Origin: Patescibacteria group bacterium
Lineage (GTDB): Bacteria; Patescibacteriota; Kazan-3B-28
NCBI GenBank assembly: GCA_028717565.1
Contig: JAQUNP010000001.1
Location: forward strand, 293,996 to 357,995
Length of the DNA: 64,000 nt
Reading direction: 5' to 3'
Of the stretch, positions 37,558 to 54,689 are shown in pieces. Each line of letters starts with the position of its first letter. Positions within the stretch are counted from its first letter, which is position 1. The notes beneath the pieces were generated by a model. That model did no database searches and was not told the origin of the DNA. It saw only the letters and a list, made by a program, of their open reading frames with translations. Made by a program: the position numbers and the translations under genes.

Positions 37558-39810
37558 ATGGCGGAGAATGAGAATCAAGAGGGATTTTTTTCGAAGGATG
37601 AAATTGCAAAGCGACGGCGGACTCTTTACCAACTAAAAGGCCGATTCAAGGACCTTAATCCGGAGTGGGTGAAGGCGCATCCTGACCAGATGGCTGAGAT
37701 GATGGCTGGGATTGAGGAGGGCTTAGAGGAAATAGAAAGGAACAAGCCGCTGGCTAAGTTTGGGGCGACTAATTTGGATTTGCTGGCAGGTAGGGTGGGG
37801 CGAGCTGAAGATGCACAGAAGTCTGCTGATGAAAAGCAGCAACCGGATTCGGAAGCTCAAGAGTCGGAACAAAAACAGGGCCAAGAGAGGCCAGATCAGC
37901 AGGATGACTGGGAGAGGGCAAAAAAGGAGCTAGAAAAAAAGAAGGGCAAGGAGGAGCCTCAAGGCAAAGACAAAGTTGAAAATGAACCTGAGGCCAAACA
38001 ATCTACCACCGAGGGCGAGGCCGGTCCCAAAACGGAGCCGAAGCCGACGTCTTCTGCTACGCCTAAGCCGACGGGGGCATCTGTGCCAAAACCGGTCCCA
38101 GCGGCTGGAGCCGGAGCTGGTGGTGGAGCCGCAGCTGCAGGTAGCGGTGCGGCGGCTGGAGGGGCTGCAGCCGGAGCTGGTGGTGGAGCCGCAGCTGCAG
38201 GTAGCGGTGCGGCGGCGGCTGGAGGCATAGCTGCCGGCTGGTGGATTGTTTTGATAATCTTGGCAGTCGCTTTAATCGCGATTCTTTTTTATATAATTTA
38301 TGCGGCAGCCCAAAATAAGGTCTTGGATGAGGCCGGCGGATCAGTTTTTGTAACATTGAGTTGCGAGAGTACGTATGACCAAGAATTGGTGAATGACGTG
38401 ATTTTTTGGACACAAAACCCCACTGATAATCCGAGGTTGGTTTTGGCACCAGAAATAGTTCACGATATTGAATGGCAGGGAGAGGGCTGCACAGATGAAA
38501 CTACCCATAAATTAGACAAGAGGGTTATGGAAACATTACGGTATTTGGTATCTGACCCGCCGCTGGGTGTGGCGTGGCCCAAGATTATGGTGGGATTGTT
38601 GGCCAGCAATGGACCGGACAAAACTGTTCGGGCCGCCAATGAGCAGGAGCGGGAGTTGGCTATCGATGAACCAATAGCCACATTCTCAGCTTATGGTACG
38701 GGGCAGGCCCTGGGGATTACAGCGATTGGGGTAACCAGTCCAGAACTGACCGCCGCTATGGGTTTGCTTAACCCAGTGCCAGTGCAGGTGGGTTGGCAGG
38801 AAGTGTTTAGTGTTAATCGACTGTATCCACTGTATGAGGCAATGCAATTTGATGCATCATTTTTATATGATGAGTTGGCGAAGATTATAAATATTAGTGA
38901 GTTGGGCGGTGCTCAATATTTGCGTGATACGCAAGATACAGAGGGGGAGCTCAAAATAGCCGATCTTTATTTGGTAGCCCAAAAGCGAGTCAGTGATTTG
39001 CGAGTGAATATAGCCAATATATCTGGACTGTTTTCTAGCCCGACGTTTTCGGAGGCGGCTATTGAATATTTCAGTCGGGCGGATGCGGACTTGGCCAGAG
39101 CCGAAGAACGGCTAGCCGCTGCCTTGGCAGAATCGCCGGAGGCATTTATTGATGCATGGGCAGAAGGCAGAGATAATCCTGAAGCTGTGGGTGTAGCGGA
39201 TGAGGACACTCTGGTTTATCAGGGCATACGTGAAGGTATCCGATTTGTGTTTAGAGCGATGCAAGTGGCTAATATGGAGGGGTGGCGTGGTAACCGAGAT
39301 CGGCTGGATCTTTGGCAGGCCTATGAAGCCAGACAACACATCCGACAAGTTGTCCTAGATTTGCTTAGAATGCCCATTGTATTGCAAGGACGAGAGGGGA
39401 TTGGGTATGGACCGGTGGTAAAGCAGATTATTGCGTTCAGCGTTGAAGACGATTTGGATAATGGGTTGCCAGACATTGATATTTATCCCAAGGGAGCTAC
39501 TTCGGTGGATGAGGGTGGAGTAGGCATGGAGCCAGCTCTAGACGGAGTAGTGGATTACTGGGACGTACACTTTTCTTCTGTGCAAGTGGACAACGGCTCT
39601 TTGTCTAAGCTGTGTACATATTTTGTATATGACACTTCGGAAATGACAAACGAGGAGCGGACGGCGGCCAATATGGTGTTGAGCACTTTGGATGCGGGTG
39701 AGTTGGACGGTCTGTGCAATATTTTATATGGTAATGAGGATTATGCTTTGGGCGACAATGAGATCGGCGGCCGAGTCAGCTATCAGAAGTTTCTCCATAT
39801 TGGCTTTTAG
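37558..39810 (+). CDS. Large bitopic protein: disordered charged N-terminal region, Ala/Gly repeat, TM helix, about 480-aa extracytoplasmic domain of unknown fold
   Basis: 750 aa. Starts 1 nt after the previous stop. E/K/Q-rich region, (A/G)n tract, TM helix WWIVLIILAVALIAILFYIIYAAA. No catalytic motif recognised. Confidence 0.6.
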   Translation: MAENENQEGFFSKDEIAKRRRTLYQLKGRFKDLNPEWVKAHPDQMAEMMAGIEEGLEEIERNKPLAKFGATNLDLLAGRVGRAEDAQKSADEKQQPDSEAQESEQKQGQERPDQQDDWERAKKELEKKKGKEEPQGKDKVENEPEAKQSTTEGEAGPKTEPKPTSSATPKPTGASVPKPVPAAGAGAGGGAAAAGSGAAAGGAAAGAGGGAAAAGSGAAAAGGIAAGWWIVLIILAVALIAILFYIIYAAAQNKVLDEAGGSVFVTLSCESTYDQELVNDVIFWTQNPTDNPRLVLAPEIVHDIEWQGEGCTDETTHKLDKRVMETLRYLVSDPPLGVAWPKIMVGLLASNGPDKTVRAANEQERELAIDEPIATFSAYGTGQALGITAIGVTSPELTAAMGLLNPVPVQVGWQEVFSVNRLYPLYEAMQFDASFLYDELAKIINISELGGAQYLRDTQDTEGELKIADLYLVAQKRVSDLRVNIANISGLFSSPTFSEAAIEYFSRADADLARAEERLAAALAESPEAFIDAWAEGRDNPEAVGVADEDTLVYQGIREGIRFVFRAMQVANMEGWRGNRDRLDLWQAYEARQHIRQVVLDLLRMPIVLQGREGIGYGPVVKQIIAFSVEDDLDNGLPDIDIYPKGATSVDEGGVGMEPALDGVVDYWDVHFSSVQVDNGSLSKLCTYFVYDTSEMTNEERTAANMVLSTLDAGELDGLCNILYGNEDYALGDNEIGGRVSYQKFLHIGF
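38109..38216 (+). repeat. Perfect 48-nt direct repeat (period 60 nt) inside the Ala/Gly linker
   Basis: 38109-38156 is identical to 38169-38216 (agccggagctggtggtggagccgcagctgcaggtagcggtgcggcggc). It extends to 54 nt with 1 mismatch. Confidence 0.95.
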
Positions 39811-39861: not shown

Positions 39862-39951
39862 GGAGAGGTGTCCGAGCGGCTTAAGGAACTGGTCTTGAAA
39901 ACCAGCAAGGCGGCAACGTCTTCGTGGGTTCGAATCCCACCCTCTCCGCCA
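39862..39951 (+). tRNA. tRNA-Ser (anticodon UGA), CCA encoded
   Basis: Acceptor GGAGAGG/CCTCTCC, anticodon stem CTGGT/ACCAG with loop CTTGAAA, long variable arm, T-arm GTGGGTTCGAATCCCAC. Confidence 0.95.
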
Positions 39952-40074
39952 CGGGTCAGAATTCAACTGGTTTGAATCTGGATCCGTGGCGAGGGTATGG
40001 ATACGACGCATCCGAAGGACAAAGGTTCGTATACGATGCTGCCAAAATATAGATAAAATCCTTTCCAACATCCG

Positions 40075-40096
40075 CCCCAAAGGGGTCCCGTTGGGA
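40075..40096. repeat. 22-nt imperfect palindromic element, copy 1
   Basis: CCCCAAAGGGGTCCCGTTGGGA. It matches 54113-54134 at 19 of 22 positions. The differences fall in the loop, at the mismatched central pair and at the last base. Confidence 0.8.
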
Positions 40097-40133
40097 CGAG
40101 TGGAGGGGCCCACCGGAGGTGGGAAACCTACCT

Positions 40134-40148
40134 CACCCTCTCCGCCAC
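40134..40148 (+). repeat. Duplicated 3' end of tRNA-Ser (att-like direct repeat)
   Basis: CACCCTCTCCGCCAC is identical to 39938-39952 (T-stem 3' side, acceptor 3' strand, discriminator, CCA and one more base). The copies are 196 nt apart. Confidence 0.85.
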
Positions 40149-40671: not shown

Positions 40672-40748
40672 GCGCCTGTAGCTCAGCGGATTAGAGCGTC
40701 TAGCTACGGACTAGAAGGTCAGGGGTTCGAGTCCCTTCAGGCGCGCCA
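40672..40748 (+). tRNA. tRNA-Arg (anticodon ACG), CCA encoded
   Basis: Acceptor GCGCCTG/CAGGCGC, anticodon stem TCTAG/CTAGA with loop CTACGGA, T-loop TTCGAGT. Confidence 0.93.
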
Positions 40749-40749
40749 C

Positions 40750-40841
40750 GGAGAGGTGCCAGAGTGGCCGAATGGGACGGTTTGCTAAACCGTTATACGG
40801 GGTTTCTCGTATCGAGGGTTCGAATCCCTCCCTCTCCGCCA
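40750..40841 (+). tRNA. tRNA-Ser (anticodon GCU), CCA encoded
   Basis: Acceptor GGAGAGG/CCTCTCC, anticodon stem ACGGT/ACCGT with loop TTGCTAA, long variable arm. Starts 1 nt after tRNA-Arg. Confidence 0.93.
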
Positions 40842-40848
40842 GTAGATT

Positions 40849-41007
40849 ATGAACAAAGTGCGATATAGACAAGGGTTGTGCCTAAGCCTGTTACTGGTAG
40901 TTTTCGGTATTATCATTTTTGTTGCGCTAGAGCACATCAAAGCGGTGGGATGTGTGTTGGTTGTGGTGGGTCTTGGGTTGATGGCTAAATTCATTCGGGT
41001 TTTATGA
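40849..41007 (+). CDS. Small hydrophobic protein, 52 aa, 2 predicted TM helices (not in the supplied ORF track)
   Basis: Hand translation gives MNKVRYRQGLCLSLLLVVFGIIIFVALEHIKAVGCVLVVVGLGLMAKFIRVL*. Its TGA overlaps the tadA ATG (ATGA). Confidence 0.4.
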   Translation: MNKVRYRQGLCLSLLLVVFGIIIFVALEHIKAVGCVLVVVGLGLMAKFIRVL

Positions 41008-41459
41008 AGGGAGATCAAAAGTACCGAGATGAGATTCTAAGATTGGCCCGTAAGGCCTATTCTGCAAATGAAGTTCCCGTGGGAGCGATTGTGGTAGATG
41101 GTGATGGTACGATTATTGGCCGAGGGTTCAACCAAACCCATACCAAGAAAGATGGCTTAAGACACGCAGAGCTGGTGGCCATCAGGATGGCGCAGCGGAA
41201 GGTGGGTGACTGGCGCTTGGAAAAGGCGTCAATATATATTACGTTAGAGCCGTGTCTGATGTGTTTAGGCGCTATTGGTAACGCTCGTATCAAAAACCTT
41301 TATTATATTTTGTCGGATCCCTTATTCGGTTCGGTGGCGAGTAAGTTAACTAAAGCAAAAGTCCGTCAGTTGTTTCCAGGATTAAATATTGAGAAACTGT
41401 CGGGTGGGACAGAGGTAGGGCAGTTGATGCGGGAATTTTTTAAAAAATTACGAAAGTAG
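41004..41459 (+). CDS. tadA: tRNA-specific adenosine(34) deaminase
   Basis: 151 aa. CDA zinc motifs HAELVAI and PCLMCLGAI. Confidence 0.9.
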   Translation: MKGDQKYRDEILRLARKAYSANEVPVGAIVVDGDGTIIGRGFNQTHTKKDGLRHAELVAIRMAQRKVGDWRLEKASIYITLEPCLMCLGAIGNARIKNLYYILSDPLFGSVASKLTKAKVRQLFPGLNIEKLSGGTEVGQLMREFFKKLRK

Positions 41460-41470
41460 ATAAACCAAAA

Positions 41471-41562
41471 GGAGAGGTGCCAGAGTGGTTGAACGGGGCG
41501 CTCTCGAAAAGCGTTATATCCTGTTTGGGATATCGTGGGTTCGAATCCCACCCTCTCCGCCA
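41471..41562 (+). tRNA. tRNA-Ser (anticodon CGA), CCA encoded
   Basis: Acceptor GGAGAGG/CCTCTCC, anticodon stem GCGCT/AGCGT with loop CTCGAAA, long variable arm, T-arm GTGGGTTCGAATCCCAC. Confidence 0.93.
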
Positions 41563-54097: not shown

Positions 54098-54144
54098 GGG
54101 CCGTTGGCTCAGCCCCAAAGGGGACCCCTTGGGTTTGGTAGAGC
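54098..54144 (+). pseudogene. 5' fragment of tRNA-Ala interrupted by the 22-nt palindromic element
   Basis: GGGCCGTTGGCTCAG (54098-54112) and TTGGTAGAGC (54135-54144) together equal the first 25 nt of the intact tRNA at 54193. They are split by CCCCAAAGGGGACCCCTTGGGT (54113-54134). Confidence 0.85.
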
Positions 54145-54192
54145 AATTGACGATAGAGCTCTGGTGTTTTAAATTATTGGGGACAAAAGTAT

Positions 54193-54268
54193 GGGCCGTT
54201 GGCTCAGTTGGTAGAGCGCCTCCATGGCATGGAGGAGGTCACCGGTTCGAATCCGGTACGGTCCACCA
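54193..54268 (+). tRNA. tRNA-Ala (anticodon GGC), CCA encoded
   Basis: Acceptor GGGCCGT/ACGGTCC with G3:U70, anticodon stem CCTCC/GGAGG with loop ATGGCAT, T-arm ACCGGTTCGAATCCGGT. Confidence 0.93.
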
Positions 54269-54331
54269 GTCTTCGTTCCGGCTTACCGGAACTTCGCCTG
54301 GCTCGGCCGACAACCCCTAGGGGAGCCGTTT

Positions 54332-54340
54332 TGATATAAT
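54332..54340 (+). promoter_or_regulatory. Extended -10 element TGATATAAT
   Basis: Identical 12-mer TGATATAATAGA to the one at 48973-48984. Only 4 nt separate it from the ATG at 54345. Confidence 0.45.
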
Positions 54341-54344
54341 AGAA

Positions 54345-54689
54345 ATGGCAAAAAGTCAGGGTTGCACCTTGAGGCGCGAATCATACCCTGCAAAGGAGGT
54401 GACGGAGGGAATGCCAAGGCGACATTTGCTCATTTTTTTCATACCTGGTCAGCTGAGCGAGGCACTGGAGGTGGACCTCGAACATGTTGACCAGATGGCC
54501 TTGATCATTGGCCGTAAGCGTATTCAAGAGCTGGGTTCTGATGGCCACGAAATCTTTCAGCTGAAAAGGAGTGAGACGGAGGCCGATTTGGTGGCAAGGA
54601 TCTTTAAGATACCTAAGCACCAAGTCAAGGAAGGGAATCCGGGCAAGATTCTTCTGCGGCTGAAGGAGGCCAGACGGCCGGTACGGTGA
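54345..54689 (+). CDS. Hypothetical protein (114 aa) or part of a long leuS leader; status uncertain
   Basis: About 32 percent of codons start with G, which looks coding. A fully overlapping antisense ORF exists (54381-54731). The start is questionable because the -10 element sits too close. No family recognised. Confidence 0.4.
   Translation: MAKSQGCTLRRESYPAKEVTEGMPRRHLLIFFIPGQLSEALEVDLEHVDQMALIIGRKRIQELGSDGHEIFQLKRSETEADLVARIFKIPKHQVKEGNPGKILLRLKEARRPVR

Follow-up and report, generated by a model that had tools for sequence, protein, structure and literature searches.

The window analysed here is a 64,000-nucleotide stretch of a Patescibacteria genome of the Kazan-3B-28 lineage (GCA_028717565.1, contig JAQUNP010000001.1, positions 293,996 to 357,995), and it contains two tRNA genes that are each accompanied by a displaced partial copy and by a 22-nt hairpin-forming sequence. 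An intact tRNA-Ala(GGC), regarded as the functional copy, was located at 54193-54268 on the plus strand using ARAGORN and Rfam (tRNA model, 66.5 bits). Upstream of it, on the same strand, positions 54098-54112 are identical to tRNA nucleotides 1-15 (15/15 relative to 54193-54207), comprising the acceptor 5' strand and the 5' half of the D-arm. Positions 54113-54134 are occupied by the 22-mer CCCCAAAGGGGACCCCTTGGGT, and positions 54135-54144 are identical to tRNA nucleotides 16-25 (10/10 relative to 54208-54217), that is, the rest of the D-loop and the 3' strand of the D-stem. This tRNA relic therefore holds a complete D-arm, which can form a three-way junction around the 22-mer, and ends exactly at the end of the D-arm. 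A 48-nt spacer (54145-54192) separates it from the intact gene. The spacer has no homologue in any of the loci retrieved in this study and carries a weak promoter-like site, TTGACG-17-TAAATT (54147-54175), whose 9/12 match is not above the expectation from shuffled sequences.

The second copy of the 22-mer, CCCCAAAGGGGTCCCGTTGGGA, is located at 40075-40096 and is identical at 19 of 22 positions. It lies 124 nt downstream of an intact tRNA-Ser(TGA) (39862-39951, plus strand; ARAGORN and Rfam) and 36 nt before a 14-nt direct repeat of the 3' end of that tRNA (CACCCTCTCCGCCA, 40133-40146). The intervening 123 nt (39952-40074) are non-coding DNA of unknown origin, with no homologue in the retrieved loci and no remnant of the nuclease gene described below. 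The flanks of this copy, TCCG and CGAGTGG, resemble a tRNA-Ser D-loop. Positions 40097-40132 appear to be a degenerate tRNA-Ser-like remnant that, together with the 14-nt repeat, folds as an acceptor-like stem plus a hairpin (-26 kcal/mol, z = -2.5), although its resemblance to the T-arm is weak and was judged by eye.

Chance similarity between the two copies is excluded. The degenerate motif has an expectation of 0.01 per window, and a structure-only scan for two adjacent GC-rich mini-hairpins retrieved just these two sites, compared to a mean of 0.06 in shuffled sequences. The arrangement had been recognized in an initial annotation based on the sequence alone, and its observation proved correct in coordinates and sequence. 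That annotation, however, placed the three differences between the copies in the loop, at the central mismatch and at the last base of a single palindrome. Instead, positions 12 and 22 form a compensatory base pair (A:T versus T:A) of a second mini-hairpin, and position 16 lies in its loop.

A double-hairpin element widespread in Patescibacteria

We searched species-representative genomes with the pattern CCCCAAAGGGGNCCCNTTGGG and retrieved at least 118 loci, whereas we estimate that about 4 would be expected by chance for a 19-base pattern in about 600 Gb. The hits were mostly found in Patescibacteria (Peribacteria, Kazan, Saccharibacteria, Gracilibacteria and Berkelbacteria), with some in Ignavibacteria, Bacteroidota, Gammaproteobacteria and other groups. 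The same motif gave 0 hits in viral contigs, so there is no sign of phage carriage. Rfam searches around both window loci, at gathering thresholds and at E values up to 10, matched only the tRNAs.

Positions 12 and 22, which the search pattern left free, are Watson-Crick complementary in 89% of 130 genomic copies, with all four pair types represented; positions 1 and 11 also covary. Across 40 distinct variants, a fold of two 4-bp hairpins with 3-nt loops left 97.2% of cells paired, with changes on both sides at 5 of 8 pairs and a covariation score of 0.216, compared to 0.051 in shuffled alignments (0 of 500 as high). In most rows the first hairpin was fixed by the search patterns, and several variant rows were chosen with a structural filter, but the 12:22 result is free of that bias. 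The single long hairpin, which is the minimum free energy (MFE) fold of individual copies, has no covariation support and was rejected. We, thus, refer to the 22-mer as a double-hairpin element (DH). In the window, it reads CCCC-AAA-GGGG + ACCC-CTT-GGGT at tRNA-Ala and CCCC-AAA-GGGG + TCCC-GTT-GGGA at tRNA-Ser.

DH is mostly intergenic, with 13% of copies inside ORFs compared to 74% of random positions. Its flank consensus is G at -1 and C/T at +1, and it also nests inside other hairpin repeats and attC-like sites. Whether DH generally occupies the loop of a larger hairpin was assessed in two ways. An MFE-based test showed no enrichment (33% versus 29%), and perfect flanking stems of 6 bp or more were enriched only from 2% to 8.5%, indicating a minority tendency.

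DH in tRNA relics

In the genome set, which was not selected for tRNA context, 15 of 130 DH copies have tRNA-derived sequence within 45 nt, compared to 9 of 650 random 90-mers, an enrichment of about 8-fold. In about eight of those copies the junction lies inside the tRNA match. Individual loci (denoted here by L numbers) reproduce the layout seen in the window. L117, L046 and L116 have 5' relics upstream of an intact tRNA. L096 has three successive copies of a tRNA-Thr 5' region, the middle one carrying DHs in both the D-loop and the anticodon loop, while L036 has two tandem 3' relics of tRNA-Gly with DH in the T-loop. Comparison with the intact paralogue showed that each insertion is exactly 22 nt, has no target-site duplication, can be in either orientation and always lies in a D-, anticodon- or T-loop of the relic.

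A metagenome scan with GCTCAG followed by CCCCAAAGGGG gave 126 matches, most of which belong to unrelated repeats. The 24 with a complete double hairpin are all flanked on both sides by D-arm sequence, and none becomes a complete tRNA when the DH is removed. At least 12 of them have an intact cognate tRNA 27-70 nt downstream on the same strand. In those cases, identity to the tRNA runs through nucleotides 1-15 and resumes after the DH up to nucleotides 19-37, followed by a spacer of 15-67 nt. The relics vary in length and decay. About half of the metagenomic cases lack an ORF, as do the two window copies. Control tRNAs in the same loci with no DH nearby rarely have relics: 1 of 62 has a 5' relic upstream and 4 of 62 have a 3' relic downstream. 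Other small palindromes take the place of DH in some relics (L103, L096, L004 and L183), and DH may therefore be one of several such modules.

Association with a small GIY-YIG gene

In several of these loci, a gene occupies the position of the spacer. A jackhmmer search seeded with two such ORFs found 15 small ORFs in the retrieved loci and none in the window. They match the GIY-YIG catalytic domain (Pfam PF01541, 47-66 bits against a cutoff of 22.6), encode predicted nucleases of 81-98 aa, and have invariant Y5, Y16-I17-G18, R27, H31, N32 and E63. NCBIfam has no model for them. Their closest solved relatives are UPF0213 proteins of unknown function (1ywl, 1zg2; E = 2e-10) and the nuclease domain of SLX1, a structure-specific endonuclease. 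Only the catalytic domain is matched, and no separate DNA-binding domain is present.

Three arrangements were observed. In L201, L170, L108, L034, L224 and L210, the order is relic (nucleotides 1-15), DH, 12-37 nt, ORF and intact tRNA, although the L210 contig ends before the expected tRNA. The end of the ORF often overlaps the first nucleotides of the tRNA. In L229 and in the tandem array of L143, the order is tRNA, ORF and relic with DH, whereas in L137 and L033 it is ORF, relic with DH, spacer and tRNA.

Since these loci had been selected through DH, we performed an independent test. A profile of eight ORFs retrieved at least 2,322 protein clusters. Those carrying a source name are called 'GIY-YIG nuclease family protein' or 'putative endonuclease' and come mostly from Patescibacteria, and many are located on very short contigs. 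Seven were examined, chosen only for the size or number of their contigs. All seven loci contain a tRNA, a relic of it and a DH or close DH variant, and six have the order relic-DH-ORF-tRNA. One of them, L246, is located at tRNA-Ala(GGC), the same tRNA as in the window. It reads GGGCCGATAGCTCAG[CCCCGAAGGGGCCCCTTTGGGG]CGGTAGA..ATG..ORF..GGGCCCATAGCTCAG.., and the stop codon of the ORF is the TAG at tRNA nucleotides 8-10. The junction in the window, after nucleotide 15, is the same as in L246, L248, L250 and the 24 metagenomic cases. Across the protein-selected set, DH variants change both sides of the outer pairs (TCCT/AGGA, GCCC/GGGC, ACCC/GGGT), and DH sits after tRNA nucleotide 10, 12, 14 or 15 and, in one relic, also at the start of the anticodon loop.

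No GIY-YIG gene or recognizable remnant was found in the 64-kb window: a profile of 14 cassette ORFs gave no significant hit among all window peptides of 12 aa or more (best E = 1.8).

Empty sites in syntenic relatives

The nearest relatives with conserved synteny are distant. L122 (68% LeuRS identity) keeps the gene order Wzy_C, small membrane protein, tRNA-Ala(GGC), LeuRS, and its tRNA starts 12 nt after the upstream stop codon, with no relic. In the window, the relic starts 10 nt after the orthologous stop codon, that of a 128-aa gene, so it marks the ancestral start of the tRNA gene. The distance from that stop to the end of the tRNA is 93 nt longer in the window. L125 and L123 (60% and 46% identity, respectively, of the DUF5673 protein) keep the order tRNA-Ser(TGA), DUF5673 gene, and their tRNA ends 29 and 20 nt before the ATG. 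In the window, the 14-nt repeat ends 30 nt before the ATG, at the ancestral position of the 3' end of the gene, while the intact tRNA-Ser keeps the 51-nt distance to the upstream gene and the flank sequence conserved in L125. The window thus carries 93-95 extra nt at tRNA-Ala and 195 nt at tRNA-Ser, and the fragments are the displaced ends of the ancestral genes, a point absent from the initial annotation. Due to the direct repeats, insertion of DH, nucleotides 16-25, spacer and nucleotides 1-15 after nucleotide 15 (about 95 nt), or insertion of relic, DH and spacer just before nucleotide 1, would give the same sequence.

Origin of the window loci

The initial annotation had proposed a small element that inserts into or recombines at tRNA genes, a recombinase or nuclease recognition site, or a REP-like hairpin family. 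This interpretation was partly supported. The first two options hold in outline, since the element recurs at tRNA genes and fragments and is consistently linked to a GIY-YIG gene. However, the unit is a double mini-hairpin, its insertions are exactly 22 nt without target-site duplication, and the REP-like reading fails. Moreover, DH is not restricted to tRNAs: about 88% of the 130 genomic copies have no tRNA-derived sequence within 45 nt, which fulfils part of a condition set beforehand for rejecting the tRNA link, despite the enrichment.

The most likely explanation, which we hold with moderate confidence, is that both window loci are ORF-less derivatives of a family of very small mobile cassettes that invade tRNA genes in Patescibacteria, with some copies in other phyla, and of which DH is the characteristic junction module. 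In this view, a full cassette consists of a tRNA 5' relic (usually nucleotides 1-15), DH, the next few tRNA nucleotides, an 81-98-aa GIY-YIG gene of the UPF0213/SLX1-like branch and an intact copy of the same tRNA, whose first nucleotides often supply the last codons and stop codon of the nuclease gene. The invaded gene would be split in its D-loop but remain functional, since a replacement end is duplicated alongside. The tRNA-Ser locus would be a more decayed version, with the intact copy upstream and the displaced 3' end downstream, and it fits the scheme only loosely. Given that neither the 48-nt spacer nor the 123-nt insert has a homologue in the retrieved loci, descent from an ORF-bearing cassette is inferred from architecture alone.

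The data show the recurrent architecture, the exact 22-nt loop insertions, the link to a GIY-YIG gene, the empty sites in relatives and the absence of DH from functional tRNAs, whereas the activity of the nuclease and the mobility mechanism are inferred from sequence. The small protein may recognize DNA shape, namely hairpins formed by tRNA arms or by DH on single-stranded or extruded DNA, and nick or break it. Breaks in the D-arm region would then be repaired by copying from a cassette-bearing allele, in a homing-like manner, or by misaligned or synthesis-dependent joining, either of which would duplicate the tRNA end and keep an intact gene. DH would be inserted by the same enzyme into exposed loops of non-essential hairpins, insertions into the functional tRNA copy being removed by selection. 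ORF-less forms could arise by loss of the ORF or by the same process acting in trans. The restored tRNA still contains the presumed target sequence, so simple homing does not explain immunity to re-cleavage. In some ORF-less cases (L137 and L200), the spacer repeats the native upstream flank, suggesting a local tandem duplication rather than import of a cassette. This was rejected for the window, as the spacer does not resemble the upstream flank of the relic.

The main alternative, which we consider unlikely but cannot exclude, is that DH is a free-living, tiny dispersed repeat, like REP, cyanobacterial small dispersed repeats or organellar GC clusters, that inserts into any tolerated hairpin loop and merely landed in pre-existing relics, such as scars of integrase-mediated elements or local duplications, the GIY-YIG link being irrelevant to this window. 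Most DH copies are indeed away from tRNAs, only about 2-4% are next to a GIY-YIG ORF, and DH may therefore spread independently of the cassette. Its nesting in other repeats, the relics without DH (5 of 62 control tRNAs), the other palindromes found in relics, the lack of a nuclease gene in the window and the classic 14-nt repeat at tRNA-Ser are also compatible with this view. On the other hand, all seven protein-selected loci carry DH in an adjacent tRNA relic, and 5' relics without DH are rare. Furthermore, the relic-DH-spacer-tRNA layout, broken after nucleotide 15 and with spacers of only 15-70 nt, recurs across many tRNA species and assemblies, which integrase scars do not predict, and no integrase or kb-sized element lies between the repeats.

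It is very unlikely that the relic plus DH is a selected signal, such as a terminator or insulator for the upstream gene, a leader structure controlling pre-tRNA processing or stability, or a decoy for a tRNA-binding factor. The retained D-arm, the location between a protein gene and a promoter-like site, and the covariation could be taken in its favour. Yet there is no T-run after the hairpins, no terminator was called on the plus strand, fold energies of the relic region are no better than those of shuffled sequences, no Rfam family matches, L122 does without it, the relics decay and vary in length, and DH occurs in either orientation in many unrelated contexts. Chance, an assembly artefact, or a tRNA intron or split tRNA is a remote possibility. 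All sequences come from metagenome assemblies and palindromes can cause misassembly, but the same architecture was found in independent ENA, JGI, NCBI and Logan assemblies, with the locus of protein P0240, for example, present in 8 of them. A tRNA intron interrupts an otherwise complete gene, typically in the anticodon loop, whereas the window relic stops at nucleotide 25 and removing DH restored a complete tRNA in none of the 24 metagenomic cases.

A more far-reaching possibility, which remains doubtful, is that DH is a 22-nt non-autonomous mobile DNA, among the smallest known, mobilized in trans by a catalytic-domain-only GIY-YIG nuclease of about 85 aa that recognizes DNA shape rather than sequence. 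Together they would form a previously undescribed type of mobile element that uses the universally conserved hairpins of tRNA genes as landing sites, rebuilds the gene it splits and, for that reason, can cross phylum boundaries.

Should the cassette interpretation be correct, it would provide a first functional lead for the large family of GIY-YIG genes in Patescibacteria, many of them on contigs that break at repeats, and would explain the puzzling tRNA fragments and GC-rich hairpins that litter these streamlined genomes. It would also describe a compact strategy for a selfish element, namely invading an essential, universally conserved gene while duplicating the part it displaces. In practical terms, such relics can be mis-called as tRNA genes, DH and relic repeats fragment assemblies, and a very small structure-specific nuclease with a defined DNA partner could be of biochemical interest. 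The window locus itself is an inert scar, whose main value is as a pointer to the family.

Comparison with known systems

No description of the motif or the cassette was found in the limited literature searched. Nuclease genes that target tRNA genes are already known, and what appears to be undescribed is a variant marked by a 22-nt double hairpin. The closest experimentally studied analogue is phage T4 SegB, a free-standing GIY-YIG homing endonuclease encoded in the T4 tRNA gene cluster, whose 27-bp site has a conserved tRNA motif, the T-psi-C stem-loop, as its core and which drives inheritance of itself and the neighbouring tRNA genes (PMC2330249). In principle, it works in a similar way. 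SegB is a full-length homing endonuclease of a phage, whereas the cassette proteins are chromosomal, bacterial, essentially a catalytic domain alone, and of the UPF0213/SLX1-like branch. They share the conserved GIY-YIG residues but lack the separate sequence-specific DNA-binding domain of SegB/I-TevI-type enzymes. A break mostly in the D-arm, splitting and partial duplication of the target gene, and a hairpin at the junction are not reported for SegB.

Integrase-mediated elements such as phages, ICEs and genomic islands also leave an intact tRNA plus a displaced partial copy as a direct repeat, with examples of about 9-23 kb (PMC9897764). The direct repeats are present in the window, 14 nt at tRNA-Ser and 25 nt, interrupted by DH, at tRNA-Ala. 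Such elements usually encode an integrase and replace the 3' part of the gene. Here, only 181 nt and 48 nt, respectively, lie between the repeats, without an ORF, the inserts are 95-195 nt (about 350-450 nt with the ORF), the 5' end is usually the part replaced and the junction is in the D-loop.

Other short hairpin DNAs include REP/REPIN elements mobilized by RAYT (Y1/HUH) transposases and IS200/IS605 (PMC3116915, PMC6006769). These are short, intergenic, hairpin-forming repeats thought to move as single-stranded DNA without target duplication through a small nuclease supplied in trans. REP sequences are imperfect palindromes with a conserved 5' GTAG, present at high copy number and often in inverted pairs, whereas DH has no GTAG head, consists of two 4-bp hairpins, is present in only two copies in 64 kb without inverted pairs and is associated with a GIY-YIG rather than an HUH enzyme. 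Cyanobacterial small dispersed repeats of 21-27 nt (Elhai et al. 2008) are reportedly of similar size, form hairpins, show evidence of recent insertion and nest in other repeats; they belong to a different phylum, have different sequences, and have no known enzyme partner or described tRNA-relic architecture. Membership of the window loci in the REP/REPIN, integrase-type island, free-standing GIY-YIG homing endonuclease and tRNA intron families was not fulfilled on the features assessed. Organellar GC-rich mini-elements include the double-hairpin elements of Allomyces and chytrid mitochondria, yeast mitochondrial GC clusters and sponge repetitive hairpin elements (PMC2800124). They are tiny elements of one or two hairpins, dispersed, nested in each other and inserted in intergenic DNA and structural RNA genes, and are not known to have a linked nuclease cassette or to split and rebuild tRNAs. 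Finally, Patescibacteria have been noted to appear to donate GIY-YIG genes to other bacteria, which fits the cross-phylum spread of DH.

Hairpin repeats in tRNA relics and elsewhere

A second GC-rich hairpin repeat sits directly 3' of tRNA-Ala in the window (54262-54310), with the structure CCACCA GTCTTCGTTC-stem-loop-GAACTTCGCCTGGCTC.GCCG. In L119, one of the loci retrieved for comparison, the same element (2393-2450) follows a bare 'CACCACCA' with no tRNA, and its stem changes in a compensatory way (CGG..CCG versus TGC..GCA). Related 'CCTTCGCT.AAGCTACGG..GRCAGGC' elements occupy D-loops of tRNA relics in two further loci, L103 and L096. Other hairpin modules occupy the same places as the 22-nt double-hairpin element in tRNA relics next to GIY-YIG genes, in loci L183 (reverse strand, about 810-900) and L004 (2330-2345 and 2760-2775). 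One of them is a 36-nt double hairpin (CCCAGCATGCGCTGGG + CGCCCGGCGTATGCCGGGCG) in a T-loop, while another is the 16-nt palindrome CCCCGAT(A/G)GATCGGGG, which replaces an anticodon arm.

The 22-nt double-hairpin element (DH) was itself observed inside other repeats. It is nested in the loop of the widespread 'GTCATCCTGAGCGAAGCG...AAGGATC' hairpin repeat in several Patescibacteria and other genomes (loci L033, L044, L045, L058, L009, L067, L069, L080, L082 and L118). Additionally, nine DH copies lie on the same strand, at spacings of about 0.6-1.4 kb, in L027 (85-5449) and L040 (1573-3136) (Ignavibacteria contig CAIOTF010000037.1), each embedded in a conserved frame ...AAGTCGCCACGCAGC[DH]TTAGCTCCAGTCCGTTAGG. 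The GTTAGGC of this frame fits the integron attC R' core (GTTRRRY), so the arrangement looks like an integron cassette array with DH at the tips of the attC hairpins. DH units can also occur in direct tandem, as seen in loci L201 (reverse strand, 1428-1471), L022 and L104, with two full 22-mers back to back in L201 and repeated TCCCCTTGGGG half-units in L104. This suggests that the 11-nt mini-hairpin is the basic repeat unit.

Other features of the window

A leader conserved with a distant relative was detected at 54325-54420, upstream of a 114-aa ORF (54345-54689), its counterpart being located at 3225-3312 of L119. It consists of TTGATATAAT (-10-like), followed by CAAAAAGTC.GGG.T.GCACCTTGA...AATC.TACCCTGC..AG.AGGTGA before the start codon of an uncharacterised small protein with no Pfam match. 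The possibility that this leader is a cis-regulatory RNA can be raised. It has no Rfam match.

A tRNA cluster, Arg(ACG)-Ser(GCT)...Ser(CGA), at 40672-41562 brackets a small ORF and a tadA-like tRNA adenosine deaminase gene (41004-41459; MafB19-deam and dCMP_cyt_deam_1). The enzyme is, thus, encoded next to its expected substrate, tRNA-Arg(ACG), and the order is conserved in L123, a syntenic relative. Finally, within the ORF at 37558-39810, an 18-24-nt periodic GC-rich repeat (38100-38234) encodes a Gly/Ala-rich stretch in a 750-aa protein with no Pfam match.
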